Made by a program: the position numbers and the translations under genes | Origin: Leptospirales bacterium | GTDB lineage: Bacteria > Spirochaetota > Leptospiria > Turneriellales > JAOUFE01 | DNA length: 28,789 nucleotides | Reading direction: 5' to 3' | Assembly (NCBI GenBank): GCA_040326155.1 | Contig: JBEQLE010000058.1 | Span: forward strand, 1 to 28,789 | Shown here: piece by piece, positions 7,441 to 23,150 of the stretch | Layout: each line of letters begins with the position of its first letter | Position numbering within the stretch: the stretch's first letter is position 1 | The notes under the pieces: model-generated | Databases searched by the model: none | Seen by the model: only the letters and a program-made list of their open reading frames with translations | Told to the model about the DNA's origin: nothing

Positions 7441-8286
7441 TTAACGAACTGCGTGTTTATTTACACCAAGTTGTTTTTCGGTGTAACCCAGAGCCATACC
7501 TACCAACTGTGAAAGGTGAATAATCGGCATTTTACCGGTCTTATTTGCGGCTTTCAAACCCATGTCTTGGTAGCTGTCTAAAGCTGTGTGGCACAATGGG
7601 CAGGGAGTAACGATAAAGTCAGCTGTGGAATCGATGGCATCGGTAAGAACGTTACCGACAATTTTTACGGATTCTTTTTCGGCTACTATTAAAGTATGAA
7701 ACCCGCAACACTTGTTTTGCGATTCAAAATCGACAACGGTGCCGCCTAGAGTTTTAATGAGGTCGTGCAGGGAAGATGGTTGATCGGGGTCATCCTTGCC
7801 GAAAAGTTCGGAGGGGCGTAAAATATGGCAACCGTAAAAAGGCGCAACTCTCACTCCAGTCAAAGGGTTTTTTACCAGGCTGGCCAGTTTTTCGAGACCA
7901 ACGTCCTCGTTAATTACCCAGAGAAGGTGTTTTACTTCGGAGGTTCCTTTGTATTCCAGACCCTCTTCTTTTAGAGCTTCGTTTACCATCTCTTTTTTTT
8001 CGGGCTGGGTATCGAGAATATGTTTTGCGTGGCGAAGTCCCAACAGACAGGTATTGCAAGCCGAAACCATATCGAGGCCAAGTTTTTCAGCTAAAGCGAT
8101 GTTACGACCGTTAACGGCCAAGGCATGATCGGGTGAAACATATTCCAGGTTGCTTCCACCACAACAGGTTCCTTCTGTTAAAGGAACAAGCTCTATATCA
8201 AGATCATTTTTCCAGAGATTAATCGACTGATCGATCTCTTTCGTCATAGATTCGTTTACACAGCTTAGATAATATGCGTATTTCAT
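7441..8286 (-). CDS. sdhE: HdrB-like CCG-domain subunit of type E succinate dehydrogenase/fumarate reductase (SdhE, also annotated SdhC/HdrB family)
   Basis: Two CCG domains (YYLSC..CCGG..CNTC; FYGC..CCGF..CPLC), no TM helices, directly downstream of sdhAB. Confidence 0.9.
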   Translation of the reverse strand: MKYAYYLSCVNESMTKEIDQSINLWKNDLDIELVPLTEGTCCGGSNLEYVSPDHALAVNGRNIALAEKLGLDMVSACNTCLLGLRHAKHILDTQPEKKEMVNEALKEEGLEYKGTSEVKHLLWVINEDVGLEKLASLVKNPLTGVRVAPFYGCHILRPSELFGKDDPDQPSSLHDLIKTLGGTVVDFESQNKCCGFHTLIVAEKESVKIVGNVLTDAIDSTADFIVTPCPLCHTALDSYQDMGLKAANKTGKMPIIHLSQLVGMALGYTEKQLGVNKHAVR

Positions 8287-8304
8287 AATATTCCTTCGTC
8301 CCTT

Positions 8305-9285
8305 TTACTTCTTTTTAAGTTCGGAAACTTTCTTGTACATTCTCCGGACGTTTTTTATTCCGGGTATCTTGTGCGCGAACAGTCCGGGCATTCTGCCTTT
8401 CATCATCATTTTAATTCCCATGGGTATTAAAGAGATGGAGCGTAGCAAACCTTTGGTTTTTACGGGTAACATACCCTCGTTCAGACGCCCTTTAGATAAA
8501 ATATCTTGTTCGAAAGCAACACCGTGGCGGTAACCTTCGGTATTTTTCATGTTGCGTTGTATGGCATCATTTCGAACACCAGAAATTGCGTCCATTATGG
8601 GAATATTCTTTACACAAACCTCAACACATTTATAGCAATGCGTACAATCCCACATGCCATGGTCGGCGTTTAGAATATTCAAACGAGCTACCTGCTGGGT
8701 ATCTCTCTCGTCTTTGTTCATACGAAAAGATTTTAATAATACAAGCGGCGAAATAAACTCGGGGCTTACTTCCATAATAGTACACTCTGAGAAACAGGCT
8801 GCGCATAAAATACAGTCTGTCGCCTGGTTAATGACTTGAAAATCTTTTTCAGAAATGACACATTCTGCTTTTCCGAGATTTTCTTTCGATATATCGGGAG
8901 TGACCCAGGATTTATATTTCTTTAGTTTTTCTACGACGGGGTTATAATCTACAACCATATCGCGCATGACATTTAAATTGCTTAAAGGGTCGATGGTAAT
9001 GACGTTCGGCTCTTTGCATCTTTCAAGCTCATCCCAGACCTGCGTGGTACAGGCAAGTTTCGAGACACCATTGACTTTAACGGCACAAGAACCGCAAATT
9101 CCAGCCTGGCAGTAAAATCGATAGCTTAACTTCGGGTCAATGTGGTCTTTAATATAGTTAATGGCCCGTAAAATGGTAATACCTTTTTCTACGGTAATCT
9201 TATACTCATCATAGTACGATTTGTCGTCTACTTCAGGATTAAAACGAAATACACGGAAATAAATATCTTTTTTATCTTCGCTCAT
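8305..9285 (-). CDS. sdhB: Succinate dehydrogenase/fumarate reductase iron-sulfur subunit, type E, with C-terminal extension
   Basis: [2Fe-2S] motif CQAGICGSC..C; two complete 4-Cys motifs CILCAACFSEC and CTHCYKCVEVC; HdrC-like GRLNE tail. Confidence 0.95.
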   Translation of the reverse strand: MSEDKKDIYFRVFRFNPEVDDKSYYDEYKITVEKGITILRAINYIKDHIDPKLSYRFYCQAGICGSCAVKVNGVSKLACTTQVWDELERCKEPNVITIDPLSNLNVMRDMVVDYNPVVEKLKKYKSWVTPDISKENLGKAECVISEKDFQVINQATDCILCAACFSECTIMEVSPEFISPLVLLKSFRMNKDERDTQQVARLNILNADHGMWDCTHCYKCVEVCVKNIPIMDAISGVRNDAIQRNMKNTEGYRHGVAFEQDILSKGRLNEGMLPVKTKGLLRSISLIPMGIKMMMKGRMPGLFAHKIPGIKNVRRMYKKVSELKKK

Positions 9286-9286
9286 A

Positions 9287-10990
9287 TTAGTATTTCCTTT
9301 CCTGAAGTTCGTATTTACCCATTGTTACAGGTTTATACGACAGATCAACATCACCAGATTCGTTCATATGGGCAATAGTATGTTTATGCCATTTAGCATC
9401 GTCACGAGTGGTAAAGTCTTCTCGACTGTGTGAACCACGACTCTCTTCTCTGGCCAATGCTCCTTTAGCAACACAGAGTCCTAGATCGAGCATGTTTTTA
9501 AGTTCCAATACCTGAGTCAGGTTGGTGTTATAGACAGCTGAGGTATCGAAAACTCGAACTTTTTTAAAACGTTCTCTGAGTTCTTGTACGTCAGCTACAC
9601 ATTTTTCAAGTTTGCTTTTAACTCGATAAATACCGGCATTCTTGCCAAGAGTTTCACCAAGTTGTTCACGAATTTCTCCCCACCTTTCGGTATGGTCAGA
9701 ATTATGATAGCTTTTAATTTCAGCTTCGGCTTTTTCTACCGCAGAAGATGATAGAGGTTTCGGGTTTAGACTCGGAGCATTCTCAGCTGCGTGTTTACCA
9801 CCCACTTTTCCGAACACAAGAACTTCGAGTAGAGAGTTACCGCCGAGACGATTGGCGCCATGTACCGAAAGACAAGCACACTCGCCTATTCCATAAATAC
9901 CTTTTATACCGGTTTCGCAATCGTTGTTTACGTCAATTCCGCCCATGGAGTAATGCGCCGTAGGTCGAATTGGAATTGGTTCATTTATCGGGTCAACGCC
10001 TTCAAAATAAATGGCCAGCTCTCGAATCTGAGGAAGTCTCGAAAGAATAAGATCTTTACCAAGATGTCGTAAATCGAGTTGCATGTATTGGCCAGCTTCA
10101 GAATCGAAACCACGCCCTTCGTTAATTTCAATTTCAATAGAACGAGATACAAGGTCGCGAGGACCAAGTTCCATTTTTTCGGGAGCGTATGTCGACATAA
10201 ATCGCTCGCCCTTGTTATTTAAAAGATACCCGCCTTCTCCGCGAGCTCCTTCTGATATTAATAATCCACTTTTTCGTAGTCCAGTCGGATGAAATTGTAC
10301 AAATTCCATATCTTCGAGAGGTAAACCAGCTCGTAAAGCATTGGCAGGACCATCCCCGTTATTTCCGGCTGCATTGGAAGATTTTTGCCAATACATTTTT
10401 GCGTAGCCGCCGGTGGCAATAATTACCGAACGTGAAGGCAAAGCAAAAACTTTACCGGTCATCATATCCATAACGACCGCGCCCTGGGCCTGTTGTCCGT
10501 CATGTTCAATAGATAATAAAAAATGTTCGCTGAAAAATTTAACCCCTTTTTTAAGACATTGCTCAAAAAGGGTATGTAGAAGAGTATGACCTGTTTTATC
10601 GGCGCAATAACAACACCTGAATTTTTGAGCGCCGCCAAAAGGTCTTTGCGCTATTTTACCGTCGTCGGTTCGTGAAAAAGGAGCGCCAAGGTTTTCCATT
10701 TCTCGAACAACAGTCGGAGCCATTTCGCATAGAATGGTCGCCGCGTCCTGGTCGGCCAGGTAGTCACTGCCTTTTACGGTATCAAAAGTATGTAAATCGA
10801 TTGTGTCGTCTTTATGCCTGTTGGCTAAAGCCGCATTTACCCCACCCTGGGCCGCTGAAGTATGAGACCTGCTTGGGTATACTTTGGATACTACCGCTAT
10901 TTTTAAATTTGGATTTGTATTAAGAGCTTCCATTGCGGCGTACATTCCGCCTCCGCCAGCTCCTATGATTACTATATCATACGGTTGCAT
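9287..10990 (-). CDS. sdhA: Succinate dehydrogenase/fumarate reductase flavoprotein subunit (cytoplasmic, no Tat signal)
   Basis: GAGGGG, RSHTSAAQGG (covalent FAD His), QFHPTG, SEGARGEGG, PRDLVSR, HYSMGG, HGANRLGGNSL, RxESRGSHxR. Confidence 0.97.
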   Translation of the reverse strand: MQPYDIVIIGAGGGGMYAAMEALNTNPNLKIAVVSKVYPSRSHTSAAQGGVNAALANRHKDDTIDLHTFDTVKGSDYLADQDAATILCEMAPTVVREMENLGAPFSRTDDGKIAQRPFGGAQKFRCCYCADKTGHTLLHTLFEQCLKKGVKFFSEHFLLSIEHDGQQAQGAVVMDMMTGKVFALPSRSVIIATGGYAKMYWQKSSNAAGNNGDGPANALRAGLPLEDMEFVQFHPTGLRKSGLLISEGARGEGGYLLNNKGERFMSTYAPEKMELGPRDLVSRSIEIEINEGRGFDSEAGQYMQLDLRHLGKDLILSRLPQIRELAIYFEGVDPINEPIPIRPTAHYSMGGIDVNNDCETGIKGIYGIGECACLSVHGANRLGGNSLLEVLVFGKVGGKHAAENAPSLNPKPLSSSAVEKAEAEIKSYHNSDHTERWGEIREQLGETLGKNAGIYRVKSKLEKCVADVQELRERFKKVRVFDTSAVYNTNLTQVLELKNMLDLGLCVAKGALAREESRGSHSREDFTTRDDAKWHKHTIAHMNESGDVDLSYKPVTMGKYELQERKY

Positions 10991-10999
10991 ACGCCCTTC

Positions 11000-11443
11000 C
11001 TATAATGCTACGTCGTCAGAACCATCGAGATTTTCAACTGCGTGTAAAATATCGCTCTGACTTAAAATTCCAACTAACTCACCATTTTTCACAACCGGTA
11101 TTCGGCGAATTCCGACCTTTTTCATTAATCGAATCGCATATTTAATATGAATATTTTGATCGATTGTTACACAAGGTTTGCTCATAATCGTATGAACCTG
11201 AGTATTCCAGGGGTCTTTGTGGACATCTTCACCAGGGTCGATGACCTTTTCGAGGATATCTTTTTCAGTAATGATGCCATAAGCGTCACCTTCACTGCGA
11301 GGTTCAACGATCAAGCTAGTGATGTCATGCTCTTTCAATATACTAATCGCTTCTGCTACAGTTTGCGAACCTTTTACTTTCGTAACATCCCTGGTCATCA
11401 ATGATGATACGGGAAGAGTTCTTAGTTTTATTAATTGTTCCAT
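11000..11443 (-). CDS. Stand-alone CBS-pair (Bateman module) protein
   Basis: [39 protein letters not shown]. Confidence 0.93.
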
Positions 11444-11485
11444 GCTATATCCTTGATCGCCTCTAACCTTAATATGTCAAACGTT

Positions 11486-14206
11486 TTAATTTATAAACTT
11501 AACTTCGGATGCGGGAGTTCGACAATCCATGTCGGTTCCCCGGTTCAAATGATCGGCAACCTCGGCTGAAGTACCCACCATTCGTCCAAATAAGAACATA
11601 GTAAAAACGATATCTTGCATCTCTTGTTCTGCAATCTCTTTTGCTTTGTACTGTTTCCAGAAAAGCTCCAGCGAAACTGTCGCAATTACAGCGTCAATAT
11701 TTACACAAAACACATTGGCTGTTGCGCCGGCTTTATGCAACTCCACAACAAGATTGTGGTAGAATTCCAGAAATGGATTTACCAGACCGTTCTTACCAAA
11801 CAGTTCTCGCACATACTCTTCTCGAGGGTCGATGTTAACCGATTTTCCTTTAAAGACAGGATGGTTCGTACATGGAATTTTTTTATACTGCAAATTCCCT
11901 GCGGCTTTTTCCGCCTTTTTGTAGACGACATATTCACTCGATACTTTGGCTGCAATTTTTGCCAGTTCAGGCTCCAGCTCTTTAATATCTTTTCCATAAG
12001 GATCAATACCAGAGAGTTTATCAATTAGGAACGCTACAGCTTCAAACCCATTTCCACCATGCGCAATACCGGTATTCATCATGAAACCTGCGTAGGCAGT
12101 TGAAAGATTATTTTTAGCACTGACAGTCTCTTTTGCCCCTTTGGCGCTCAGAGTTCCCGGGCCGTTTGTAACAGTCAGGTTAAACAGTGAGTTTAAGGCA
12201 AAAATTTCTTTGCCTTCAGGATCTCGGTTAAATAAAATTCGAAAACAAGATTCGGTGTAGTCTGTATCGAGCAGACTTAAATTTTCGAGCGTCTGCAAGT
12301 TCTGCCAGAATACATTAGACTCATGACCGATTACAGAGTTTGCAACGATAATGCCATTTAAGGCCAAATAAACGGGAAGGTTTACAGCGTCATTGCGAGA
12401 AATTCGCCTATCGGTAAGTGGTTTCCACGATACGCTTAAAAGCACAGCAGAAATTAAAAGCCACGCAGGATTCACCTTGCCTGGGTTTTTCTCCAGGTAA
12501 GCTACAACAAAGCGTGTAAATATGGTTTCTAGGGAGTGCTTTTTCAGGTTTTGCAACATGAATTCATACACTTTGGTATCCACATCGGTTCCGGAGGACT
12601 CGGGCAGTGCCAATTCTAATTTGGCATCAATCAGCTTGTCGTCAATATCGGTTATAGAACCAATGTCCTGGTAAAAGGCGTCAATTAAAGCTGACGTTAT
12701 TCCTTTGAATGATTTATGCATTTTGTTATCACCAGAGATTAAAACAGAAGCTCCGATGTATGCATTCGGGGTAGCGCCGTTTGCTCTGGCTTTGGTAGAG
12801 TAGTCGATGTACTCGGTTCCGGCAGAGACAAACCAGTTTAAAACCGGGTTTACCATAAACAGTTGATTGTCGGTCGGAAACTCTCTGGTTACGGCAAATA
12901 TATTAGTAGCGGCAAATGGCTTCTGGACCAGATCTAATAAAGAGACGCCGTGTATTTCGGTTACATCGGTTTTCTTGTTCATCTGGGTTGCGCCGGAGGC
13001 ATTTCTCAGGGTTTGTCGCAAATACTGAGCGCCGACTTGTTTGTTGGCATTTTCAATCTCTTTATCGTATGGAGCAATTGCAGTTACCGCGTCTATAGAG
13101 AGCTCTTTCGGTAGTTTTAGATCTTGAGAATTGACGAACCATGGTTTTAAACTAAGGTCACCTACAGGTTCAAAATCGGGTTTTTCGCCTAAAAGCTTCA
13201 TCACTTCACCAAGCGCTTCAGGTATTTGCTGAATGGTTTGTACCCTCACCCCTTTTTTAGAGACAACCGGTTTATCCGGGTCATATTCTGGTACGCCAAA
13301 ATAGGCGTCAAAAATTTCTTCTTTTGCTTCTGCATCGTCACCAACACCGGCAAGCGCGCCCGCATGTCCAACCGCCCGGGTAAGATGCTTTTTCCATCTT
13401 CCGGTTACAACGGCAATAATGGGTTTCGTATATTTAAATAGACCTTCATTAATCCAGTCGAGGGCTTGTTGTTCATAATAACCGCCGGGTTCGACATAGA
13501 CAATAACAGCTTTTGTTCTCGGGTCATTTTCAGCCGCGTAAAGAAACTCTGGTAAACCAAAGTGAATGTAGATATCTTTACCGGAACTTACAATTGTTGA
13601 AGTACCAAAACCTGCTGTTTTAATATATTCTGAAATAGTCGTACTAAAATTACCAGAATTCGAGTGAAGAGCTACAGAACCTTTGACAAGACTCTCTTGC
13701 GGTTTATCGCCGCCCAGCGCCCCGCCAATGCGAATCTCTTCCCAGGAGTTGGCCACACCTAAAGAGTTGGCCCCTACTACATCGACTCCGGCTTTCTGGC
13801 AATTATACCGAATATACCTTGAATCGCGAACCGACATTTTCTCGGTAACGATCACTACTTCTTTTAAATTTTCGTTCCCCGAAATCAGTTCTGAAACAGC
13901 GTGAGAGACAGCGGCAGGAGGTAGATAAATTACCCCGGTATCGAACTCAATACCCGAATCTACGATCTCTTTTACACTGCCAAAAACGGGTATGTTACCC
14001 AGTTTGGTTTCGAGGTGTTGTCCACCGCGTCCATACTGAACGCCCGCGACCACGTTGCCGCCGCTGTACTGGTGAGATACCGGTGTAACCTGAGAGCTTT
14101 CGCCGCCCAGAATATTCATAATTACTACACGATGTTTTTTACTTGCTAAGTCTTCGAGAGATTTAGCGCCTACAAAATAAGGAAAGGGATTTTCGTTGTT
14201 GCCCAT
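11486..14206 (-). CDS. aclA: ATP citrate lyase alpha subunit, long (type II-like) form, 906 aa
   Basis: N-terminal SucD-like CoA-binding and ligase domains with phospho-His motif VGHAGA; C-terminal citrate synthase/citryl-CoA lyase fold (NGPGTLSA, HGGNG, NHPVFK..DPR, NIDAVIA, RMVG..AEVADH). Confidence 0.88.
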   Translation of the reverse strand: MGNNENPFPYFVGAKSLEDLASKKHRVVIMNILGGESSQVTPVSHQYSGGNVVAGVQYGRGGQHLETKLGNIPVFGSVKEIVDSGIEFDTGVIYLPPAAVSHAVSELISGNENLKEVVIVTEKMSVRDSRYIRYNCQKAGVDVVGANSLGVANSWEEIRIGGALGGDKPQESLVKGSVALHSNSGNFSTTISEYIKTAGFGTSTIVSSGKDIYIHFGLPEFLYAAENDPRTKAVIVYVEPGGYYEQQALDWINEGLFKYTKPIIAVVTGRWKKHLTRAVGHAGALAGVGDDAEAKEEIFDAYFGVPEYDPDKPVVSKKGVRVQTIQQIPEALGEVMKLLGEKPDFEPVGDLSLKPWFVNSQDLKLPKELSIDAVTAIAPYDKEIENANKQVGAQYLRQTLRNASGATQMNKKTDVTEIHGVSLLDLVQKPFAATNIFAVTREFPTDNQLFMVNPVLNWFVSAGTEYIDYSTKARANGATPNAYIGASVLISGDNKMHKSFKGITSALIDAFYQDIGSITDIDDKLIDAKLELALPESSGTDVDTKVYEFMLQNLKKHSLETIFTRFVVAYLEKNPGKVNPAWLLISAVLLSVSWKPLTDRRISRNDAVNLPVYLALNGIIVANSVIGHESNVFWQNLQTLENLSLLDTDYTESCFRILFNRDPEGKEIFALNSLFNLTVTNGPGTLSAKGAKETVSAKNNLSTAYAGFMMNTGIAHGGNGFEAVAFLIDKLSGIDPYGKDIKELEPELAKIAAKVSSEYVVYKKAEKAAGNLQYKKIPCTNHPVFKGKSVNIDPREEYVRELFGKNGLVNPFLEFYHNLVVELHKAGATANVFCVNIDAVIATVSLELFWKQYKAKEIAEQEMQDIVFTMFLFGRMVGTSAEVADHLNRGTDMDCRTPASEVKFIN

Positions 14207-14230
14207 GTTTTACTCCAATTTTCCCCGGTA

Positions 14231-15481
14231 TCAACCGGCTTGATTATTCTTTTTATTCTCAATTATCCAATCATCCAGTTTTATGGTGTGCTCTAAAACA
14301 CCCACCATACTGCTGTCATAACCAAAAAATTGATAGGGAACCTTCATGTTGTCAAGTGTGTCGCGGCCATATACCATGCCTCGAATTAGATTCGGACCAC
14401 CTCGACCCACAACCACTTGAACATTCGGGTTCAAATGAATATGCTCTTTCAAAGAGTCAAATATACCTTTAAAAGTTACAAAGATATCGGTGTTATTCGC
14501 CTTACCGCCAATTAGTAAAACAATGTTGGTATCTTTTAACCAGTGTCTAAACGAGATATCAGCTATCATTTTCATCTTCTCGTACGGAGGGTTTCCACCA
14601 AAGTCCGATGAGATAATCGCCCGGTTGCTCAACACTTCTGTGGCTGCGCTGTTTGCCCCACCACCAAAGATAAACGGTAGTATACTTCCTTCCGGGTTAA
14701 GCTCGGTCACATCAGACTGACCCTGGTAGGTTCTGAGCAGGTTAATTTCCGCTTCAAAATCGGTTATATCGGTTGAAAAGATCTCCTCGGGAAAACCGAG
14801 ACGTTTCCACGCCGGATTATCCTGATCAAAAGAGGCTTTAATATCACAGGCTACGGGAACAAACCGTTTGCCGAATTTACCCATACGAATGGGATTTAAC
14901 TCCAGCGTAACCAGTCCGAATGAATCATACGCTTCCCAGAGTTTGGGCAGAAATTGTACCAGCGGTGAAATATACTGCTTGGGACAATTGAGTTCCGTCA
15001 GTGCGTTCGTAATATGAAAAGATTTGATTCCCGTAATCGGGTTAAATACAATTTCTCTTTTTTTATCGGCAGCTACATCTTCTACGTCAACGCCACCCTC
15101 GATAATCAGGCTCATGACTGGTTGTCTATGAACCGTAGAAGCCGTAATGCTCACGTAAATTTCAGCGTCTGAAGGTATAAAGCCTTCAAAAGTAACACCG
15201 TTCGCCTGAACAACAGCATTGCCTTGCGAGTGCTTGGCAAAGTATAAATCTTTTTTAGCTTCCACTGCTTCGTGAAGCGTTTTGGCAACTCTTACCAATC
15301 CTGCTTTTCCTTTTTTACCAATACCCCCGGTAAAAAAAGGTTTCACCACACATTTTCCACCATGATCAGCCATCAGTTTGGCGATATCTTCTTTGGACGC
15401 TTCTTCGGTTAAAGACGGAGCAACAGGAAATTCCACCATCTCTAATATTTTAGTACCATATTTTAAGCCTGTCAATTGCAT
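14231..15481 (-). CDS. aclB: ATP citrate lyase beta subunit (ATP-grasp + citrate-binding domain), 416 aa
   Basis: Start re-called to MQLTG (ATG 15481, GAGG SD); VVKP..GIGKKGKAGLV, LELNP, GGGANSA, DFGGNP, GGKANNTD, GRGGPN. Confidence 0.88.
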   Translation of the reverse strand: MQLTGLKYGTKILEMVEFPVAPSLTEEASKEDIAKLMADHGGKCVVKPFFTGGIGKKGKAGLVRVAKTLHEAVEAKKDLYFAKHSQGNAVVQANGVTFEGFIPSDAEIYVSITASTVHRQPVMSLIIEGGVDVEDVAADKKREIVFNPITGIKSFHITNALTELNCPKQYISPLVQFLPKLWEAYDSFGLVTLELNPIRMGKFGKRFVPVACDIKASFDQDNPAWKRLGFPEEIFSTDITDFEAEINLLRTYQGQSDVTELNPEGSILPFIFGGGANSAATEVLSNRAIISSDFGGNPPYEKMKMIADISFRHWLKDTNIVLLIGGKANNTDIFVTFKGIFDSLKEHIHLNPNVQVVVGRGGPNLIRGMVYGRDTLDNMKVPYQFFGYDSSMVGVLEHTIKLDDWIIENKKNNQAG

Positions 15482-15635
15482 ATTCGCTTCCTCTTTTATA
15501 TTAACAATAATCTTAATAAAATGTCGGCCCCGTAAAATAGTCGATGTTACGGAAACCATCGCTTTCACGATTTAATAAGGGTAGGTCAAATAATAGGAAC
15601 GAGCTATCAACCTTTTTTTCAGTTATTTATCACTG

Positions 15636-15705
15636 TTTTTGTAAAATAAAGTAAACGTTTATAAGGAAAGCAGGAAGTGAGGATAAGGAAGGCAGGAAAA
15701 GAGGG
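15636..15705 (+). repeat. Family A purine-rich repeat (TTTATAAGGAA-(A/G)GCAGGAA units), copy 1
   Basis: 15636-15698 matches 17599-17661 at 56/63 nt by manual alignment. Confidence 0.85.
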
Positions 15706-15737
15706 TGGCTGGCGACGAGCCGGCGAAAATCGTGATT

Positions 15738-15791
15738 TAAAGGAATAGCACTCCAAATGTTCGTAGTTCGGAATGCAACCGTAATTGCAGA
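15738..15791 (+). repeat. Family D REP-containing element, partial copy 2
   Basis: TAAAGG..TCC..TAGTTCGGAATGCAACCG; 17/18 match to the reverse complement of 18951-18968. Confidence 0.7.
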
Positions 15792-15873
15792 AAGGGATTT
15801 TTGTTTTGAAATTATTTTTCCATATACCAAAAAAAGACCTTTACTTCAAATATTATTTTACTAAGTTAGTGCT

Positions 15874-16119
15874 GTGAAACGGGTAGCCCATTTAATTAGA
15901 ATACGACATGTCAGCATAGTATTATTGATTTTTTTCAACTTTTCTTGTGATAAAAAATACAGTAAAACATTTAAATATGAATCTGGTACGGTATCAAAAT
16001 ACGAAGGACAGGTAGATAATAAAAAATATCCATTGATCAAAAAGCCTGCTTCCCCTGGAATATTGATCAATGGAACTTCAACAAAGGTAAAACATATAAG
16101 TACTCCTTATATCATGTAA
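15874..16119 (+). CDS. Putative lipoprotein N-terminal part (probably the 5' half of a frameshifted gene)
   Basis: Basic N-terminus, hydrophobic stretch and lipobox-like FFNFS-C; its stop overlaps the next ATG (TAATG). Confidence 0.55.
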   Translation: MKRVAHLIRIRHVSIVLLIFFNFSCDKKYSKTFKYESGTVSKYEGQVDNKKYPLIKKPASPGILINGTSTKVKHISTPYIM

Positions 16120-16805
16120 TGGAAAGTAAAAGTACCATAGAAGGAATGCTCAAAGATACTCCCATAATTTCGAATGATAAATTCACCCTTTCTCGCAATG
16201 TAATCATAAAAAGCAATAAGAATCACACAGCAGATTTCACTTTTCAAAAAACAACTGGCGAAGTAATTGTAAAATATGATATAAGTTCAAAGACAAGAAA
16301 GACCACACTTAAATTTAACGAATTTGTTATGGAAGGTGTACATGAAAACAGTACATGGAGTAATCCAATAGAAAACACGGAAAGTATGTGTTACTATTTT
16401 GCTTTTGCTTTGCCAGATAAACCCGCTGAGCATTTGGAGTTCTACGAAAGAGAAATTGAGGTTCCTTGGAATGTAAATAACCTTAAATTAAAGATTAAAG
16501 GGAAAATGACTACAACTTTAACAGGTTATGTAGAAATTGATAACAGAGCGCATGCCAAACTTCAATCCATTATTAAAATCAATGAAGTTGAGATTCCAGA
16601 CGATGCAGAAGACAAAATGGGCTGCTCCGTAAATGGGACTTCTGTTTTCTATTTTGATATTTACAATAGAACTTTCCACTCGGGCACCATGGCCGTTCAC
16701 CTGGATTGTTATTCTAAAGCCATGAAAATAGAATCAGATGGCAACGAGAGTCTAGATATAAGAATGGAATATGATCACTTGTTCACTTTTGATCGCTTGG
16801 AATAA
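16119..16805 (+). CDS. Hypothetical beta-rich protein (probably the 3' part of the lipoprotein)
   Basis: 228-aa ORF in AT-rich DNA; its frame stays open upstream to 16023 (..QWNFNKGKTYKYSLYHV-MESK). Confidence 0.7.
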   Translation: MESKSTIEGMLKDTPIISNDKFTLSRNVIIKSNKNHTADFTFQKTTGEVIVKYDISSKTRKTTLKFNEFVMEGVHENSTWSNPIENTESMCYYFAFALPDKPAEHLEFYEREIEVPWNVNNLKLKIKGKMTTTLTGYVEIDNRAHAKLQSIIKINEVEIPDDAEDKMGCSVNGTSVFYFDIYNRTFHSGTMAVHLDCYSKAMKIESDGNESLDIRMEYDHLFTFDRLE

Positions 16806-16806
16806 T

Positions 16807-16980
16807 AACCGTTTATAAGGAATACAGGAAAATAGAGTGCTGTGTTGCTTTTTAAGAACTTGTCTAATTATGAATTGTTATAAAACTCTAAATATATTTG
16901 TTTCTTAAAATCATGTAAATCCTGTCTGGTATCTCTTTTTCTTTTCCTGCCTTCCTGCCATTCCTGCCTTCCTTGTTAAA
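16807..16980. repeat. Nested repeat cluster: family A forward (16807-16832), family B right arm (16891-16927), family A inverted (16942-16980)
   Basis: GTTTATAAGGAATACAGGAAAA ... AATATATTTGTTTCTTAAAATCATGTAAATCCTGTCT ... TTTTCCTGCCTTCCTGCCATTCCTGCCTTCCTTGTTAAA. Confidence 0.85.
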
Positions 16981-17008
16981 TTCTTTCTCCTTCATAATAA
17001 ACATAGAG

Positions 17009-17272
17009 TTAGCTATAAGAAAAGCAGTATCTACAGGAAATAATATTTAATTCACTTTTTTCTATTCGATATACTAATCTGTGTTCTAAATCGATTCTCC
17101 TGGACCAGTAGCCATGAAGTTGGTGTTTTAAGGGTTCAGGCTTCCCAATACCATCATATGGGTCTCTAACGATGGCTTTTACCAGTTCATTAATTTTTTT
17201 CAAAATATTTCGATCATTTTTTTGCCAAAAGATATAGTCGGTCCATGCTTCTTCCGTGAAAAGAATATTCAT
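17009..17272 (-). CDS. yoeB: Txe/YoeB family toxin (atypical C-terminus)
   Basis: FTEEAWTDYIFWQ..KKINELVK..P..GIGKPEPLK..GYWSRRIDLEHRLVY. Confidence 0.95.
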   Translation of the reverse strand: MNILFTEEAWTDYIFWQKNDRNILKKINELVKAIVRDPYDGIGKPEPLKHQLHGYWSRRIDLEHRLVYRIEKSELNIISCRYCFSYS

Positions 17273-17523
17273 TCTTCACTAAGTTCTTTCTTGTGTAATT
17301 TTTGACTTTTAGCTTGATTCATTGATTTCATTAAGTGCTTGGCATTCGCTTCATTTGCCATTAAATAATTTGATTCAATTAAAGAGTTATACTCTTGCAT
17401 GGAGATCATAACTACATTTTCATTATTTTTTCGAGTGACAATTAAAGGATCGTGATCTTGATATACATGATCTAAATAGCTTTTTAAGTTTTTGCGCAAA
17501 TCTGAGTAAGAAACAGCTTCCAT
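17269..17523 (-). CDS. yefM: Phd/YefM family antitoxin
   Basis: SYSDLRKNLKSYLDHV..PLIVTR..VVMISMQEYNSLIES.YL..NAKHL..S; 4-nt overlap with yoeB. Confidence 0.95.
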   Translation of the reverse strand: MEAVSYSDLRKNLKSYLDHVYQDHDPLIVTRKNNENVVMISMQEYNSLIESNYLMANEANAKHLMKSMNQAKSQKLHKKELSEE

Positions 17524-17528
17524 AATAG

Positions 17529-17561
17529 GTACAACATATAGTACAATAAGGATATTGTCAA
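17529..17561 (-). promoter_or_regulatory. yefM-yoeB promoter with autoregulatory operator
   Basis: TTGACA (17556-17561)-N17-TATGTT; two TTGTAC motifs 12 bp apart overlap the -10, like the paired TGTACA YefM operator. Confidence 0.7.
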
Positions 17562-17598
17562 ATAATAAATTGTATTATAGGTTACTGTGTAGGTTGTA

Positions 17599-17672
17599 TT
17601 TTCGTAAATTTAAGTAACAGTTTATAAGGAATACAGGAAGTGAGGATAAGGAAGGCAGGAATTACAGGAAAA
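17599..17672 (+). repeat. Family A repeat, copy 3
   Basis: TTTATAAGGAATACAGGAAGTGAGGATAAGGAAGGCAGGAATTACAGGAAAA. Confidence 0.85.
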
Positions 17673-17692
17673 ATGCAGAAGAAGAGAAGAGA

Positions 17693-17785
17693 TTGCAAAG
17701 ATATATTGACGAGTTTTGCTGGAGGTTTTACAACCGGAAAAATAAGGAGATTTTTAGTGATCTGCTTGATCGAATTGGGGGTTAG
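17693..17785 (+). mobile_element. IS1595-family transposase C-terminal remnant
   Basis: Translates as LQRYIDEFCWRFYNRKNKEIFSDLLDRIGG*, matching the IS1595 C-terminal signature HLQxYLDEFxFRxNxR; no start codon or upstream part. Confidence 0.75.
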
Positions 17786-17945
17786 GATTTTTTTAACATA
17801 ACAATAGATATTTTATTGTTGACTACACACACACTATACACTTATATTGAGTTTTTCAATTAAAAGGTAACTTTTTTCAAAATGTTGCCTAATTAATAAG
17901 TGGCTTTTGGGAACATCAGTTTTTTACATAAGAAAGGATAGGGCA

Positions 17946-18134
17946 ATGGTAAAGGCATTAATAGACCTTATAATAGCATTATTTCATAATAAAACGCAAG
18001 TATCTAATGAAACCGTAAAAAATATTGTATCGTTAAGAGCAGAAGGCAATATAAGTTTGCAAAATGGAAAATATATTACGGATGAAGACATTGAAAAGCT
18101 CAGGAAAAAAGTTAAAAAACTTAAGTTTTCTTAA
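17946..18134 (+). CDS. Small hypothetical protein, 62 aa
   Basis: ATG 17946 with AAAGGA SD; contains GNISLQNGKYITDEDI; its stop abuts the next ATG. Confidence 0.7.
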   Translation: MVKALIDLIIALFHNKTQVSNETVKNIVSLRAEGNISLQNGKYITDEDIEKLRKKVKKLKFS

Positions 18135-18791
18135 ATGACTATAAATCTGCCTGTTGGTAGTGACAGCGATTTAGATGAGATTAGTAAACTATTTGTTGAA
18201 GCCGAAAAAATAATCAAATCTATTGAAAAATTAGACAAGGGATTAGTCTCACCGTCTGTAAATCAATTAAGATATTTAGCACACCATCTTATAAGAATTC
18301 TTCAAAATAATATTGACATTGAAGACAAAAAAGAAAATATTAAATTAGCTAAAAATCATTGCAAAAGATCAATATATGATGCAAATGAAGTTGGTATACT
18401 TTACTTATTAACTAAAATATCAAATTTTCAAGCTGGTTATAGGTTTATATCTTTATCGAAACATTTTAATAATTATCCTGATAATTTATTTCGTATTAAT
18501 GAAATTAATAAATTTGTAGAAGTCCCATTAAGCGATGGGGAGAAAATAAAATATTACGATAAAGTAAGTCAGCATTATATCGAACTAAGAGATCTTAGTG
18601 AACTATTTGAATCAAATAGATCTGAAATAAACAAAAATTATCTTTTGAAAATAGGTGTAGGTATTTTTGTAACAATTATTCTCGGTGCTATTTTTATTCC
18701 ATTGCTCTCTGGTTATTTTTCTAAAATGGGCGAGTCATATTTTAGAAATAATTCAAAAGATACATCAGCAAAAATAGAATTAAAACAATAA
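18135..18791 (+). CDS. Helical hypothetical protein with HEPN-like RxxxxH motif and C-terminal TM helix
   Basis: NQLRYLAHH and AKNHCKRSIYD motifs; hydrophobic IGVGIFVTIILGAIFIPLLSGYF; very low GC. Confidence 0.75.
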   Translation: MTINLPVGSDSDLDEISKLFVEAEKIIKSIEKLDKGLVSPSVNQLRYLAHHLIRILQNNIDIEDKKENIKLAKNHCKRSIYDANEVGILYLLTKISNFQAGYRFISLSKHFNNYPDNLFRINEINKFVEVPLSDGEKIKYYDKVSQHYIELRDLSELFESNRSEINKNYLLKIGVGIFVTIILGAIFIPLLSGYFSKMGESYFRNNSKDTSAKIELKQ

Positions 18792-18858
18792 TTTGTAATT
18801 AGTAAATAAATCATAAAATTACAACCTAAACCTCTATGTCCGATAGGGGATGATTGCG

Positions 18859-18904
18859 AATATATTTGTTTCTTAAAATCATGTTAATCCTGTAAATCCT
18901 GTCT
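18859..18904. repeat. Family B repeat (tandem 9-mer AATC(C/A)TGTN), right arm
   Basis: AATATATTTGTTTCTTAA-AATCATGTT-AATCCTGTA-AATCCTGTC-T; identical to 16891-16927 except for one extra 9-mer. Confidence 0.85.
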
Positions 18905-18941
18905 AGGTTCTCTTTCTTCATACTTTAAAAGTATAAACCGA

Positions 18942-19050
18942 TCTGTAGTGCGGTCGCATTCCGAACTATCACCTAATTCTTGTGCGGGCGCGATTTATCG
19001 CGGCCCTACCTTTACCGTTCGAAAATACAACTCTGGCGGACGGCCTGACT
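18942..19050 (-). repeat. Family D element, longest copy, carrying two GTAG-type REP hairpins
   Basis: GTAGTGCGG-TCGCATT-CCGAACTA (18945-18968) and GGGCGCGATTTATCGCGGCCCTAC (18985-19009); colinear with 25395-25482. Confidence 0.8.
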
Positions 19051-19081
19051 CTTCTTTGTGAAATCTGTTCCTATATGGAAG

Positions 19082-20461
19082 TTAAAAACGGTTTTGTTGT
19101 AATCTTTTCTTATAAATAACCTGGATACCGATTAAGAAGAAAAATGCGGTGAGGCTGATGGTGGCTGTGTATAAGAACAGGGAACCGACGTCCCAGATGC
19201 GAGTAAAAGCGGGAAAGGCGCTTAGGCCCTGTTCCAATTTTCTTTGCATGGCTCCGGTAAAACCGACATGCAACCAGAAGGAAATAATATACAAAGCTAG
19301 TAAGGCGGAAATTCGCATTAACCACACTTCGTCGAATTTTTTCTGTTTCTTTTCAACAGATTGTACGCTCGAAACATATTTTAATGTCAGACTTAAAATA
19401 AACAGGCAAAATAGTAATATGCGGTTTCCGTCATTCCATAACGAGAAGTCTACAAACGAACTGACCCAGGTTATTGCCAGTAAAGTTTTACCTATGGCGT
19501 AAAAAAGGACAAATACAATAATCGTTGCTGCGAGATTTTGCAGAAAAATATTATTCCCCATCTCGTTGCTACGAAGTTTCAGTTTATGTAGAATACGAAT
19601 TATAAATAAACCATAAAGCGTTTGAAAAAATATCCCGAAAAAGTTTATAAAAGTCAATTTATTGCCCCAGGGAAGGTTCGCTGCAACACTCCATACACAA
19701 AGCAAAGCTAAAAGAGCAATATGTCTTTTATGAATAAGTCTATTAGGCACTCTGGCGTTTAGTGTGCTGTTTTTCGATTTTCCAAAGTTTTTAGATTTTT
19801 GTGCGGTTTTTTTATTTTCCAAACCGGTTTCATCCGTATCTGATTTAGATAATATATCTTTTAGCATATATTTATCAATTAAAACTAAAATCAATACAAC
19901 GGGAATAAGTTCCCAGCCGATCAGTTCTATCGTGCGTTGCCAAATTAACTGAAAATTCCCGTTCCAAATCGAAATAGAGCTTAAAAAACCGACAGGCACA
20001 GCCATGTTGTGAATTATATAAAACAGAAAAAACAGACTCAACATAATACCGTGAAGTCTGGCTTTATTACCAGAATCTTTTTGCCTGTAAAATCGGAGCA
20101 AAATTACCGACGCACTAAAAATAATGAAAATATCGAATATTAACTCTGGCTGGGCTAACTCCATATTTTGCGTTTTACCGAACAATGCGAAGAAAAGACC
20201 TGCGACCAAAGCACTATTGTACATATACACAGGCCAATTCGAATAGGCTTTTTGCATAAACTCTTGTTTGTAATTTTCGTATATCTTTTGGAAGCAATAA
20301 TTCAGGTAGACGCCTAGAACAATGGCATTACTGAAAAACAGATAACTGGTCGCGGTATTCATTGTTCCATAAGATAAAACAGGAAAAAATATATACAGAA
20401 CTGAATAGATTACGGAAAAAGCGGCTACTGTCAGCCAGAATAGTATAATAGAAAAAAACAT
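19082..20461 (-). CDS. Polytopic membrane protein, divergent homologue of cbb3-type cytochrome c oxidase subunit I (CcoN) lacking the metal-ligand histidines
   Basis: About 12 hydrophobic segments; colinear CcoN-like blocks LSYG, GKTQNMELAQPELIFDI, IIHNMAVPVGFLSSISIWNG..QLIWQ, VSSFVDFSLWNDG, LYIISFW..FTGAMQR. Confidence 0.7.
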   Translation of the reverse strand: MFFSIILFWLTVAAFSVIYSVLYIFFPVLSYGTMNTATSYLFFSNAIVLGVYLNYCFQKIYENYKQEFMQKAYSNWPVYMYNSALVAGLFFALFGKTQNMELAQPELIFDIFIIFSASVILLRFYRQKDSGNKARLHGIMLSLFFLFYIIHNMAVPVGFLSSISIWNGNFQLIWQRTIELIGWELIPVVLILVLIDKYMLKDILSKSDTDETGLENKKTAQKSKNFGKSKNSTLNARVPNRLIHKRHIALLALLCVWSVAANLPWGNKLTFINFFGIFFQTLYGLFIIRILHKLKLRSNEMGNNIFLQNLAATIIVFVLFYAIGKTLLAITWVSSFVDFSLWNDGNRILLFCLFILSLTLKYVSSVQSVEKKQKKFDEVWLMRISALLALYIISFWLHVGFTGAMQRKLEQGLSAFPAFTRIWDVGSLFLYTATISLTAFFFLIGIQVIYKKRLQQNRF

Positions 20462-20467
20462 CTTACG

Positions 20468-21424
20468 TTATAAAGTATTAAAATAATCGCTGTCTTTTGG
20501 TAAATTCGACCTACGAGGTCGCATAGCCAACAGATCACCATTGACATTGTAAATACTTCTTTTGCCCAGAATCTCACCTTTTAATTCATCCGAATCAGGC
20601 TCTTCCCTCTCCCCTTTCATTTGGTTGGCAAGGTCAATTCCCTCTCGAATTTGCACCAACTCTTCTGGTTCTGCGCTTATGGCATGGTCGGGACCTTCCA
20701 TATTCTTATCCAGAGTAAAATGTTTTTCTATAACCGTGGCCCCTAACATAGCCGAGGCAAAAGCCGCCTGGGCACCCTGGCTGTGGTCCGAAAAACCGCT
20801 CATGGAACCGATCTCTCTACGAATTTTTACGATGGTATCTAAATTTAATTGATCGGTTGGCGCTGGGTAATTTGAAACACAGTGTAAAAAGACTACATCT
20901 TTAAAATTAAACATTTTAAAAAAGGCTGCGCTTTTTTCTATATCATTCCAATACGAAGCCCCGGTAGAGACAAAATGCGGTATTTTATATTTTACTGTTT
21001 CTTTCAGTAACATATAATTATTCAAATCTCCCGAAGCGATTTTGAAAAAAGGTACTCTAATTTGAGCCAGTATTTCAACCCAGTCTGTAGTTAAAGGAGT
21101 AGAAATAAAATCTATACCATTATTATCAGCAGCCTTTTTTAATACATCGTGATCATGTTCAGATAGTTCATATCGGGAAAATATATCATAAATGGCCCTG
21201 GCTTCAGCTGATTCCTTATCGATAAATTTATCAGTAGTGTAGGACTGAAATTTTACGCAGTCTGCTCCACACTGTGCAGCTTTTTCGATCATGGTAGAGG
21301 CAAAATCCATATCGTTATTATGGTTTAAACCAATTTCAGCAATTAAGTATGGTTTACGCTCTTCAGAAATTACCCGAGAACTGTGATTCGAAAATATTTT
21401 TTGAGAAAAAAAATGATCAGACAT
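20468..21424 (-). CDS. neuB: NeuB-family N-acetylneuraminate/nonulosonic acid synthase
   Basis: YLIAEIGLNHN, GADCVKFQ, FKIASGDLNN, LHCVSNYP, GFSDHS, IEKHFTLD..GPDH. Confidence 0.93.
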   Translation of the reverse strand: MSDHFFSQKIFSNHSSRVISEERKPYLIAEIGLNHNNDMDFASTMIEKAAQCGADCVKFQSYTTDKFIDKESAEARAIYDIFSRYELSEHDHDVLKKAADNNGIDFISTPLTTDWVEILAQIRVPFFKIASGDLNNYMLLKETVKYKIPHFVSTGASYWNDIEKSAAFFKMFNFKDVVFLHCVSNYPAPTDQLNLDTIVKIRREIGSMSGFSDHSQGAQAAFASAMLGATVIEKHFTLDKNMEGPDHAISAEPEELVQIREGIDLANQMKGEREEPDSDELKGEILGKRSIYNVNGDLLAMRPRRSNLPKDSDYFNTL

Positions 21425-21425
21425 A

Positions 21426-22559
21426 TCAACGACGTCTTTTTCTATATCGTAAGCCCGTCAAAATTATCGCAGGGTTAATATGCTTACCATTTCTGGTTAC
21501 CTCAAAATGGAGGTGCGGTCCGGTTGAATAACCAGTATTTCCCGATTTAGCAATAACTGTACCTTGAACAACACGAGAGCCTTTTCTGACATAAATTTTA
21601 CTCAGGTGACCGTAAAGCGTTTTATACCCGCCAGGATGAGAGATAATAACTACATTACCATACCCTCCCAGTCGACCGGCGTAGACAACCCTGCCGCCTT
21701 TTGCAGCGCGAACAGAGGTGTAATTAGCTTTTAAATCTAAACCCTTATGAAAAGCTCTTCGAGGATACCTTCTCGGGCCATACCGAGAGGTTACAATTCG
21801 GCTGCTGACAGGAAATAGCCACGACCTGATAATATTCTTAGGCTTGGCGCCGGGTAAAAATACTTCCTGCCCAACTTCCAGCAGGTCTGTGTTTATACCC
21901 GGGTTTTCTTCTAAAAATTTATCGTAACCAACAGTGTACTTGGTCAGTACCTGGGCAAGTCTCTCATTTTTCTTAATCGAATAAAAGAACCCTTCTTTAT
22001 TAGGAATAGATAATTTCTGGCCTACTCTCAAGTGATCGAGAATTTGAATACCGGAAGAACCTGCAATCGATTCAACAGATACTTTAGATATTGAGGCAAT
22101 AGCAGAGAGCGTGTCCCCTTTTTGGACAATATACTCTCTTTTAAATAAGGTTGGTATCTCTTCAGAACCTTCAACAATTTCACTTTCCGCTTCAATTTGC
22201 TGAAGTAGTTGATCTTTTAAAACTTCATCCTGGTCTTCCCGGGTTGTCGCTTCGTTTTGGCCGGTTCCGCCTCCACCAATACCGGTAGAAGTAATATTTT
22301 TTGCTTTATTCGCAGGTACCGAAGAAATGATAAAAGCCCCACTGATGAGCAGAACAAAACCGGCTACCACATACTTGTGCTTTTCGAGGTGGTTTAAAAT
22401 TTTAGGGATAATAAATACGTGAGATTTAGTTGCGTTATTTTTTATATACGATATGACCAGACGGCTACGATTATGCAGCGCAATCTTCCATTGCCTTTTA
22501 CGGCCCGTAGATTTATACGAAGGTTGACCCTTCTTTTTAACAATACCTTTCCAGTCCAT
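21426..22559 (-). CDS. Membrane-anchored LysM + M23 peptidoglycan endopeptidase
   Basis: N-terminal TM, two LysM repeats (YIVQKGDTLSAIA), HKGLD and TGPHLHFEV zinc motifs. Confidence 0.93.
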   Translation of the reverse strand: MDWKGIVKKKGQPSYKSTGRKRQWKIALHNRSRLVISYIKNNATKSHVFIIPKILNHLEKHKYVVAGFVLLISGAFIISSVPANKAKNITSTGIGGGGTGQNEATTREDQDEVLKDQLLQQIEAESEIVEGSEEIPTLFKREYIVQKGDTLSAIASISKVSVESIAGSSGIQILDHLRVGQKLSIPNKEGFFYSIKKNERLAQVLTKYTVGYDKFLEENPGINTDLLEVGQEVFLPGAKPKNIIRSWLFPVSSRIVTSRYGPRRYPRRAFHKGLDLKANYTSVRAAKGGRVVYAGRLGGYGNVVIISHPGGYKTLYGHLSKIYVRKGSRVVQGTVIAKSGNTGYSTGPHLHFEVTRNGKHINPAIILTGLRYRKRRR

Positions 22560-22645: not shown

Positions 22646-23035
22646 CTAATCGGTACGGTTGACCCCAAATGATTCTAGTACTATTTTTTCGATATCTTTT
22701 TTCTGTCCGCCAGTAATTGTAACACTACCTTTTAGCAATACACCTTTGGCTACATGTATAGAAGGCGCTTGAATATCACCAACCATTTTGCCTGTTTCCG
22801 AAAGTCGCACTTCGTTCGTGGCTTCAATATCGCCAATCAATGTTCCAGAAATTAATACATTTTTTGCATCAATATTCGTCTTGACCCGACCTCTCTCACC
22901 GATTACCAGCATATCGTCGGTTTTAATTTCACCTTCGAACTTACCGTCGATTTTTAAACTGCCTGCAATATAAAATTGCCCTTCAAATACGGAACCTTCT
23001 CCAATTACGGAGTTCATTTGATCATCTCTAGCCAT
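22646..23035 (-). CDS. Bactofilin (polymer-forming cytoskeletal protein)
   Basis: NSVIGEGSVFEG..LKIDGKFEGEI..IGERGRV..ISGTLIGDI beta-helix repeats; ATG 23035 with GAGG SD; classic adjacency to an M23 peptidase. Confidence 0.93.
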   Translation of the reverse strand: MARDDQMNSVIGEGSVFEGQFYIAGSLKIDGKFEGEIKTDDMLVIGERGRVKTNIDAKNVLISGTLIGDIEATNEVRLSETGKMVGDIQAPSIHVAKGVLLKGSVTITGGQKKDIEKIVLESFGVNRTD

Positions 23036-23150
23036 ACATACCAACCTCTGTTGTTTTGATTTACTGACAAGCTTTTTCTTTTTAAAAGGTTAATGCGTTG
23101 CTTATAAAGTACAATATTGAAAATTTTAAATAATCCTATAGAAAAAATGG

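Follow-up and report, generated by a model that had tools for sequence, protein, structure and literature searches.

We analysed a 28,789-nucleotide contig of a Leptospirales bacterium (JBEQLE010000058.1; hereafter the window), in which an open reading frame (ORF) on the reverse strand at 19082..20461, here called gene X, starts with ATG and encodes a protein of 459 amino acids with approximately 12 helices. An earlier annotation of this DNA (the original prediction) had described it as an intact homologue of CcoN, subunit I of cbb3-type oxidases, in which all six haem and CuB histidines were replaced (0/6 kept) and which closed a bactofilin-M23-neuB operon. The operon context was borne out by Pfam, which identified all three genes upstream of gene X on the same strand: a bactofilin gene at 22646..23044, the first of the cluster (132 amino acids; PF04519, 1.2e-26), a gene for a LysM and M23 peptidase protein at 21426..22559 (377 amino acids; PF01551, 1e-33, and PF01476, 1.5e-15), and a NeuB-family gene at 20468..21424 (318 amino acids; PF03102, 2.1e-72), with 6 nt between its stop codon and the start of gene X. 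Gene X is most likely co-transcribed with these three genes. Neither ccoO nor ccoP adjoined gene X, which lies between the NeuB-like gene and a low-GC island, and the window contained no cytochrome, complex III or alternative complex III (ACIII) gene.

The frame of gene X was uninterrupted, as had been predicted. It contained no internal stop codon, whereas each of the other five frames of the same DNA contained 18-35, and from the base composition (36% G+C) the probability of 459 codons without a stop by chance was approximately 2.6e-14. The product was very hydrophobic, and both hydropathy and the helices of a predicted model gave approximately 12 helices, forming a 12-helix core with the N-terminus inside. 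When the topology of CcoN was imposed, 34 lysine and arginine residues fell in cytoplasmic loops and 7 in periplasmic loops. The hydropathy of gene X correlated with that of CcoN at r = 0.66 over 405 columns, with a maximum of 0.38 after circular shifts, although an alignment of this kind by itself tends to produce such agreement. The charged insertion noted earlier in the middle of the protein corresponded to residues 196-246 (19724..19876, reverse strand), a predicted cytoplasmic loop between helices 6 and 7 with 13 K/R and 6 D/E residues; it stood opposite a gap in CcoN in hhalign alignments of both the family and the single protein, and its predicted local distance difference test (pLDDT) score was below 50.

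Direct searches with the protein of gene X (hereafter the target) returned almost nothing. Apart from noise, no Pfam or NCBIfam family, and neither COX1 nor ccoN, matched at E<=1. Against the curated CcoN models, with cut-offs of 34.8 bits for PF00115 and 583 bits for TIGR00780, the target remained below every cut-off, and it gave no TIGR00780 match at E<=1e-3 in a whole-genome scan. A search of PDB sequences gave no match, and no homologue was found in a word-indexed library of approximately 5.8 billion clusters, by exhaustive phmmer over 1.84 billion representatives, or in 40 related genomes, genome contigs and metagenome contigs. Nothing usable came from the ESM Atlas (top feature score 0.86, in unnamed clusters), and a single-sequence AlphaFold model had a mean pLDDT of 49.8 and was set aside. 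On their own, these results would argue against the assignment to CcoN in the original prediction.

Three further genomes of the same family (G001, G002, and G003), which together with the source genome of the window (G000) make up the four family members among 34 genomes of the order, each carried a large ORF in the corresponding position. No significant BLASTP match joined the target to the G003 or G001 copy, or to the PF00115 proteins of its own genome on contigs C83 and C44; the link between the target and CcoN was drawn through the G002 copy and through profiles. The target matched the syntenic G002 protein in two collinear high-scoring segment pairs (HSPs; E 5e-7 and 3e-5), and the G002 protein in turn matched the canonical CcoN of G003 from end to end (E 3e-13 over 454 columns) and TIGR00780 with 42.1 bits (E 5.4e-11). 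The X proteins of G003 and G002 matched each other at E 2e-33, and that of G001 exceeded the PF00115 (COX1) cut-off with 36.1 bits. When the G002 copy was used for a protein search, the sole match was itself, labelled as hypothetical.

Profile-profile comparison extended this chain over the whole length. By hhalign, the four-member family aligned with 16 canonical CcoN sequences with a probability of 99.5% (E 2.2e-22, 412 columns), and the target alone did so with a probability of 93.1% (E 3.1e-7), residues 26-446 falling on CcoN 50-450. In a control with 22 further polytopic ORFs from G000, the target scored 58.3 and a genuine oxidase 47.7, whereas the other 21 scored at most 21.7 and the reversed target 16.2. 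A purpose-built CcoN hidden Markov model (HMM) gave the target 9.1 bits, whereas none of 300 residue-shuffled versions exceeded 2.9, and placed it third among the 3319 stop-to-stop ORFs of 150 or more amino acids in the genome, behind two genuine haem-copper oxidase genes. In a single BLASTP comparison with a CcoN from a genome of the same family (L005:1471-2898:+), the best HSP joined query residues 73-168 to CcoN 94-199 with 27/110 identical residues (E 0.042). In the reverse direction, the family profile found gene X in the four family genomes and in none of the order's 30 genomes from other families; outside gene X it retrieved only canonical ccoN genes, in 7 of those 30 genomes and in G003, at the same coordinates as the TIGR00780 scan. 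On this evidence, gene X is a true CcoN homologue by common descent over its whole length, as originally proposed. Of the five segment pairings with CcoN on which that proposal had been built, hhalign reproduced all five and BLASTP the second and third, in both cases independently of the earlier alignment. One detail shifted: following a five-residue insertion, the first haem-b histidine pairs with F43 and not with T38, neither of which is a histidine.

A match to cbb3 profiles or structures had been named beforehand as a check, and the profile part of it is the hhalign result for the target alone. For the structural part, an AlphaFold2 model of the target was built from an alignment that included the 16 CcoN sequences (mean pLDDT 59.4, predicted template modelling score 0.55). 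A fold search with this model ranked cbb3 subunit I first (9g6b, 3mk7, 8smr, and 6xkw; template modelling scores 0.67-0.71) and NorB next. In a quick maximum-likelihood tree, which may be subject to long-branch effects, the four X proteins grouped together (Shimodaira-Hasegawa-like approximate likelihood ratio test, SH-aLRT, 84) and with CcoN (SH-aLRT 91), apart from NorB and from A- and B-type oxidases.

The metal ligands were then read from columns that were the same in all three MAFFT modes and held an invariant histidine in 16/16 CcoN sequences; which histidine holds haem b and which haem b3 is presumably as elsewhere in the superfamily. Residue numbers below are those of the G003 CcoN, which is offset by 4 from Pseudomonas stutzeri 3mk7 chain A. 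In P. stutzeri, according to the accessible part of the source, the CuB ligands are His207, His257, and His258 (PMC3578206). At the first haem-b histidine (H64; H60 in P. stutzeri), the target had F43 (codon 20333..20335; this and the following codons are on the reverse strand) by all three MAFFT modes and by hhalign, and the three relatives kept histidine. At the helix-VI CuB histidine (H211; H207), the target had I178 (19928..19930), and T, S, and V occurred in G001, G002, and G003, respectively. Here hhalign placed W183 instead; neither residue is a histidine, and the G002 and G003 copies have a histidine one residue before this column. The CuB pair (H261-H262; H257-H258) corresponded to A261-N262 (19676..19681) in both MAFFT and hhalign; the relatives had V, Y, and F at its first position and A, Q, and N at its second in the same order of genomes. 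The helix-X H-x-H motif corresponded to N346-R347-I348 (19418..19426). Its haem-b3 position (H349) was histidine in G001, Q in G002 and G003, and N346 in the target, and its second haem-b position (H351) was histidine in all three relatives and I348 in the target, a residue that BLASTP also placed opposite the retained histidine of the G002 copy. The cross-linked tyrosine (Y255) was S in G001, F in G002, Y in G003, and C255 in the target. None of the six histidines of the target (137, 151, 244, 247, 292, and 398) lay in a ligand column.

All six metal-ligand positions and the cross-linked tyrosine were thus substituted in the target, which upholds the central observation of the original prediction. 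Lacking the canonical cofactor ligands, the target cannot bind the canonical cofactors and therefore cannot reduce oxygen. Across the family, the CuB pair was absent from all four copies, the haem-b pair was kept in G001-G003, and the haem-b3 histidine was kept only in G001, giving 3, 2, 2, and 0 of six ligands for G001, G002, G003, and the target, respectively. In these alignments the family is not uniformly ligand-less, and the target stands at the far end of a graded loss.

The syntenic orthologues, the collection of which had been suggested as a further check, occupied the same slot in 4/4 family genomes with intact frames of 436-546 amino acids. In each of the three relatives, bactofilin, M23, and NeuB-like genes were followed by a large ORF on the same strand (518, 436, and 546 amino acids in G001, G002, and G003, respectively), and in G001 and G003 the next gene encodes ATP-citrate lyase, as in the window. 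NeuB-like orthologues were present in 38 of the 41 genomes searched, and no X-like ORF followed the NeuB-like gene in any of the eight loci inspected in other families. At most inspected loci across the order, an ORF of M23 length lay directly before the NeuB-like orthologue. The NeuB-family protein of the window scored far below the equivalog cut-offs of NeuB (253.6 against 399.65) and PseI (210.4 against 340.25), and it is perhaps not an ordinary sialic-acid synthase.

Between gene X and ATP-citrate lyase, positions 15569-19081 of the window form a low-GC stretch (0.28-0.37, against approximately 0.40-0.44 in genes further upstream) that holds a YoeB/YefM toxin-antitoxin pair (17009-17523, reverse strand) and three ORFs with no family above cut-off (15874-16119, 16119-16805, and 18135-18791). 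It looks like an insertion, since only 214-409 nt separate gene X from ATP-citrate lyase in G001 and G003. Farther along on the reverse strand, at 7441-15568, both ATP-citrate lyase subunits adjoin a CBS protein, together with a fumarate reductase or succinate dehydrogenase flavoprotein, an iron-sulphur subunit, and an HdrB-like CCG subunit; this arrangement suggests a reductive tricarboxylic acid cycle module in a Leptospira-like spirochaete. An ORF of 2134 amino acids, cut by the end of the window (2-6403, reverse strand), contains an SpvB N-terminal domain, FG-GAP repeats, and an RHS repeat, the layout of Rhs or Tc-type polymorphic toxin shells.

The genomes were also surveyed for genuine oxidase genes, as the original prediction had recommended for ccoN. 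TIGR00780 found no canonical ccoN in G000, nor in G001 or G002, in assemblies that are about 93-95% complete, so that such a gene could be unassembled. G003 has a canonical ccoN-ccoO pair in addition to gene X; gene X is therefore a paralogue and not a replacement. The sole FixO match of G000 lay on contig C85, in accordance with the earlier statement that no ccoO or ccoP is near gene X. It belongs to an orphan locus found in 4/4 family genomes (C85, L042:1444-2465, in G000; C42 in G001; C163 in G002; C137 in G003), in which a FixO-like monohaem cytochrome with its CxxCH kept is followed by a gene for a small cytochrome c or lipoprotein, with no adjacent subunit I gene.

G000 has three other PF00115 genes. 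One of them, on contig C44 (L004:1387-2679, reverse strand), encodes a divergent haem-copper oxidase subunit I of 430 amino acids (PF00115, 63.6 bits) that falls loosely with NorB. Of its ligands, the first haem-b histidine, the HH pair, and the histidine of the high-spin haem are kept; methionine stands at the second low-spin position, and the helix-VI CuB column has no histidine. A gene of this type was not found by PF00115 in G001-G003. In the largest genus of the order, the canonical ccoN genes (L007-L010, in G018, G012, G021, and G017) are single frames of 711-768 amino acids, consistent with CcoN-CcoO fusions, and the G002 and G001 X proteins also match the NCBIfam model of a bifunctional subunit I/II fusion.

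We consider the most probable explanation, with a probability of roughly 0.6, to be that gene X is a lineage-restricted CcoN paralogue whose product, a 12-helix membrane protein, is non-catalytic, carries no cofactor, and has been preserved by selection. The paralogue has retained the 12-helix architecture with the N-terminus inside and lost the CuB, haem-b3, and haem-b histidines and the cross-linked tyrosine, and its frame would be maintained by selection under very loose sequence constraint. That selection acts on a translated membrane protein is suggested by the open frame in four lineages that have diverged at more than 70% of their residues. Constraint would accordingly lie on the architecture and on a few loops rather than on a catalytic core, and selection probably applies to the target copy itself. 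The product would work as a non-redox structural membrane protein. Its most CcoN-like segments are the loops after helices 3, 5, 9, and 11, which are periplasmic under the CcoN topology. Because the surviving CcoN-like parts are periplasmic loops, we propose that the protein may offer a periplasm-facing docking surface and be co-expressed in this role with the bactofilin, M23, and NeuB-like genes. A fuller version of this scheme, in which the four syntenic genes would record the stepwise dismantling of a cbb3 subunit, the stripped protein was recruited as a polytopic component into a bactofilin/M23 cell-shape machine, and the target is the cofactor-free end point acting by its periplasmic face, is a tentative proposal that we hold to be rather doubtful.

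Several observations weigh against a retained, cofactor-free paralogue. The direct CcoN-HMM score of the target was only 9.5 bits (E 0.061 genome-wide), and together with the absence of any Pfam or NCBIfam match this leaves membership to be established through intermediates and profile-profile comparison. The fold match was partly circular, since the alignment behind the model contained CcoN, and we counted it as compatibility only. The inserted loop is not conserved, being nearly absent in the G002 copy. X proteins were only 22-34% identical between family members and evolved far faster than their neighbours, the corresponding identities in the same genomes being 69-94% for bactofilin, 51-65% for M23, 50-76% for the NeuB-like protein, and 84-87% for ATP-citrate lyase. 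Terminal branches of the X proteins measured 1.5-5.6 changes per site, the longest being that of the target (5.64), against a tree median of 0.15. Synonymous sites are saturated, since the nearest orthologue is 28% identical and the same-genus pair 34%. Such fast divergence fits weak constraint or a recent loss of function in G000. The target alone has lost the haem-b pair kept by its three relatives, and the function of the family may therefore need haem b. Finally, the connection of gene X with cell shape, bactofilin, M23, and the NeuB-like protein is drawn from gene order only. The view in the original prediction that the gene is repurposed rather than decaying thus stood in part: the open frame in four genomes favours it, but the rate of divergence leaves weak constraint or recent loss in G000 in play.

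The second of these, that the ancestral role needed haem b and that the G000 copy lost it recently, now drifts, and is intact for lack of time, is the rival that survives best, although we regard it as unlikely. Only the target is without both haem-b histidines, and besides having the longest terminal branch it shows the lowest identities in the family (22-31% with the other copies over 95-385 aligned columns); its locus has also been disturbed, the low-GC island with YoeB/YefM lying directly downstream. A drifting gene should nevertheless have been broken by now: had drift gone on until both haem ligands and most other residues were replaced, an interrupted frame would be expected, yet all 459 codons are free of stops at a base composition that puts many into every other frame. 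Nothing of the positive-inside bias or of the hydropathy pattern has been lost, and the 6-nt junction with the NeuB-like gene is still in place.

A redox role is improbable. Here gene X would bind haem or a metal by non-canonical ligands and work with the orphan FixO-like and cytochrome c pair as a degenerate cbb3-like relay without an oxygen-reducing centre. Such a partner, with its CxxCH, exists in 4/4 family genomes, G000, G001, and G002 yielded no C-family subunit I relative other than gene X, and the most CcoN-like segments of gene X are the periplasmic loops, which we take to be those facing CcoO in the cbb3 structure 3MK7. The bis-histidine haem-b site kept by G001-G003 makes the idea attractive for those three copies. 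In the target, however, no histidine stands in a ligand column, the FixO-like pair is unlinked to gene X in 4/4 genomes, and the incompleteness of the assemblies means that a canonical ccoN could be unassembled. A complex prediction for the one pair, gene X and the orphan FixO-like protein, scored 0.01 against a mark of 0.32 and so gave no answer in either direction.

It is scarcely credible that gene X encodes an unrelated 12-helix protein, such as a divergent polysaccharide polymerase or flippase, with a likeness to CcoN arising by chance or from composition: the blank searches of Pfam, NCBIfam, PDB sequences, and two large libraries, and an arrangement of 6+6 helices around a central loop next to a sugar-acid synthase homologue, would suit such a protein, but the significant collinear chain through syntenic orthologues, the hhalign probabilities for the family and the target, the low scores of the 21 control ORFs, and the retrieval of nothing but ccoN in other genomes all contradict it. 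Assignment to a polysaccharide flippase or polymerase, or to a major facilitator superfamily transporter, was rejected, there being no family match and descent from CcoN being established.

If gene X is a retained, cofactor-free CcoN paralogue, the graded series of 3, 2, 2, and 0 ligands in one genomic slot would make it possible to ask what a haem-copper scaffold does without its chemistry, within the limits of a tiny family of four uncultured genomes. There is also a practical consequence for annotation. Gene X itself is invisible to Pfam and NCBIfam, and its better-conserved relatives just reach COX1, as the G001 copy does, which could lead automated metabolic reconstructions to score them as oxidases. 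In the titles and abstracts listed by our literature searches, we found no published description of cofactor-free CcoN relatives or of oxidase-derived membrane pseudoenzymes.

Among known systems, the genes upstream of gene X resemble a described morphogenetic module in which a bactofilin gene adjoins a gene for an LmdC-type M23 endopeptidase; the accessible part of the source gives it for Hyphomonas neptunium and Rhodospirillum rubrum, and in Leptospira biflexa LbbD lies beside an M23 gene (PMC10945521). The first two genes of the cluster match this module, and all three same-family genomes retain the pair with a NeuB-like gene after it. As far as that part of the description goes, the module has no such polytopic membrane partner, gene X being added only in this family. 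In Helicobacter pylori, Csd5 and Csd7 are presented, in the portion of the report available, as non-enzymatic transmembrane proteins of a helical-shape complex with the bactofilin CcmA and the M23 proteins Csd1 and Csd2 (PMC9507126). We cite them as a functional analogy and not as evidence, and claim no relation in sequence or fold.

Among oxidase relatives, remodelled C-family branches that lack the active-site tyrosine are, according to the accessible text of the source, working nitric oxide reductases and not cofactor-free proteins (PMC11214002). NorB of the cytochrome c-dependent nitric oxide reductases (cNOR) is like gene X in being a C-family branch with a remodelled active site, whereas in the target no ligand is left, and NorB structures ranked below cbb3 in the fold search. 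The nearest relative is CcoN/FixN itself (TIGR00780 and PF00115; P. stutzeri 3MK7/5DJQ). Gene X is like it in descent, length, and 12-helix topology with the N-terminus inside, and the periplasmic loop motifs after helices 3, 5, 9, and 11 can still be recognised. It differs in the replacement of every ligand histidine and of the tyrosine, in its 50-residue basic loop, in the lack of ccoO, ccoP or ccoQ after it, and in a terminal branch tens of times the tree median. The setting is a cell-envelope operon with no adjacent cytochrome, and the gene is extremely divergent and confined to four genomes. As traced through these comparisons, gene X belongs by descent to the haem-copper oxidase subunit I superfamily, in which CcoN is its closest relative, and it retains none of the features by which CcoN functions.

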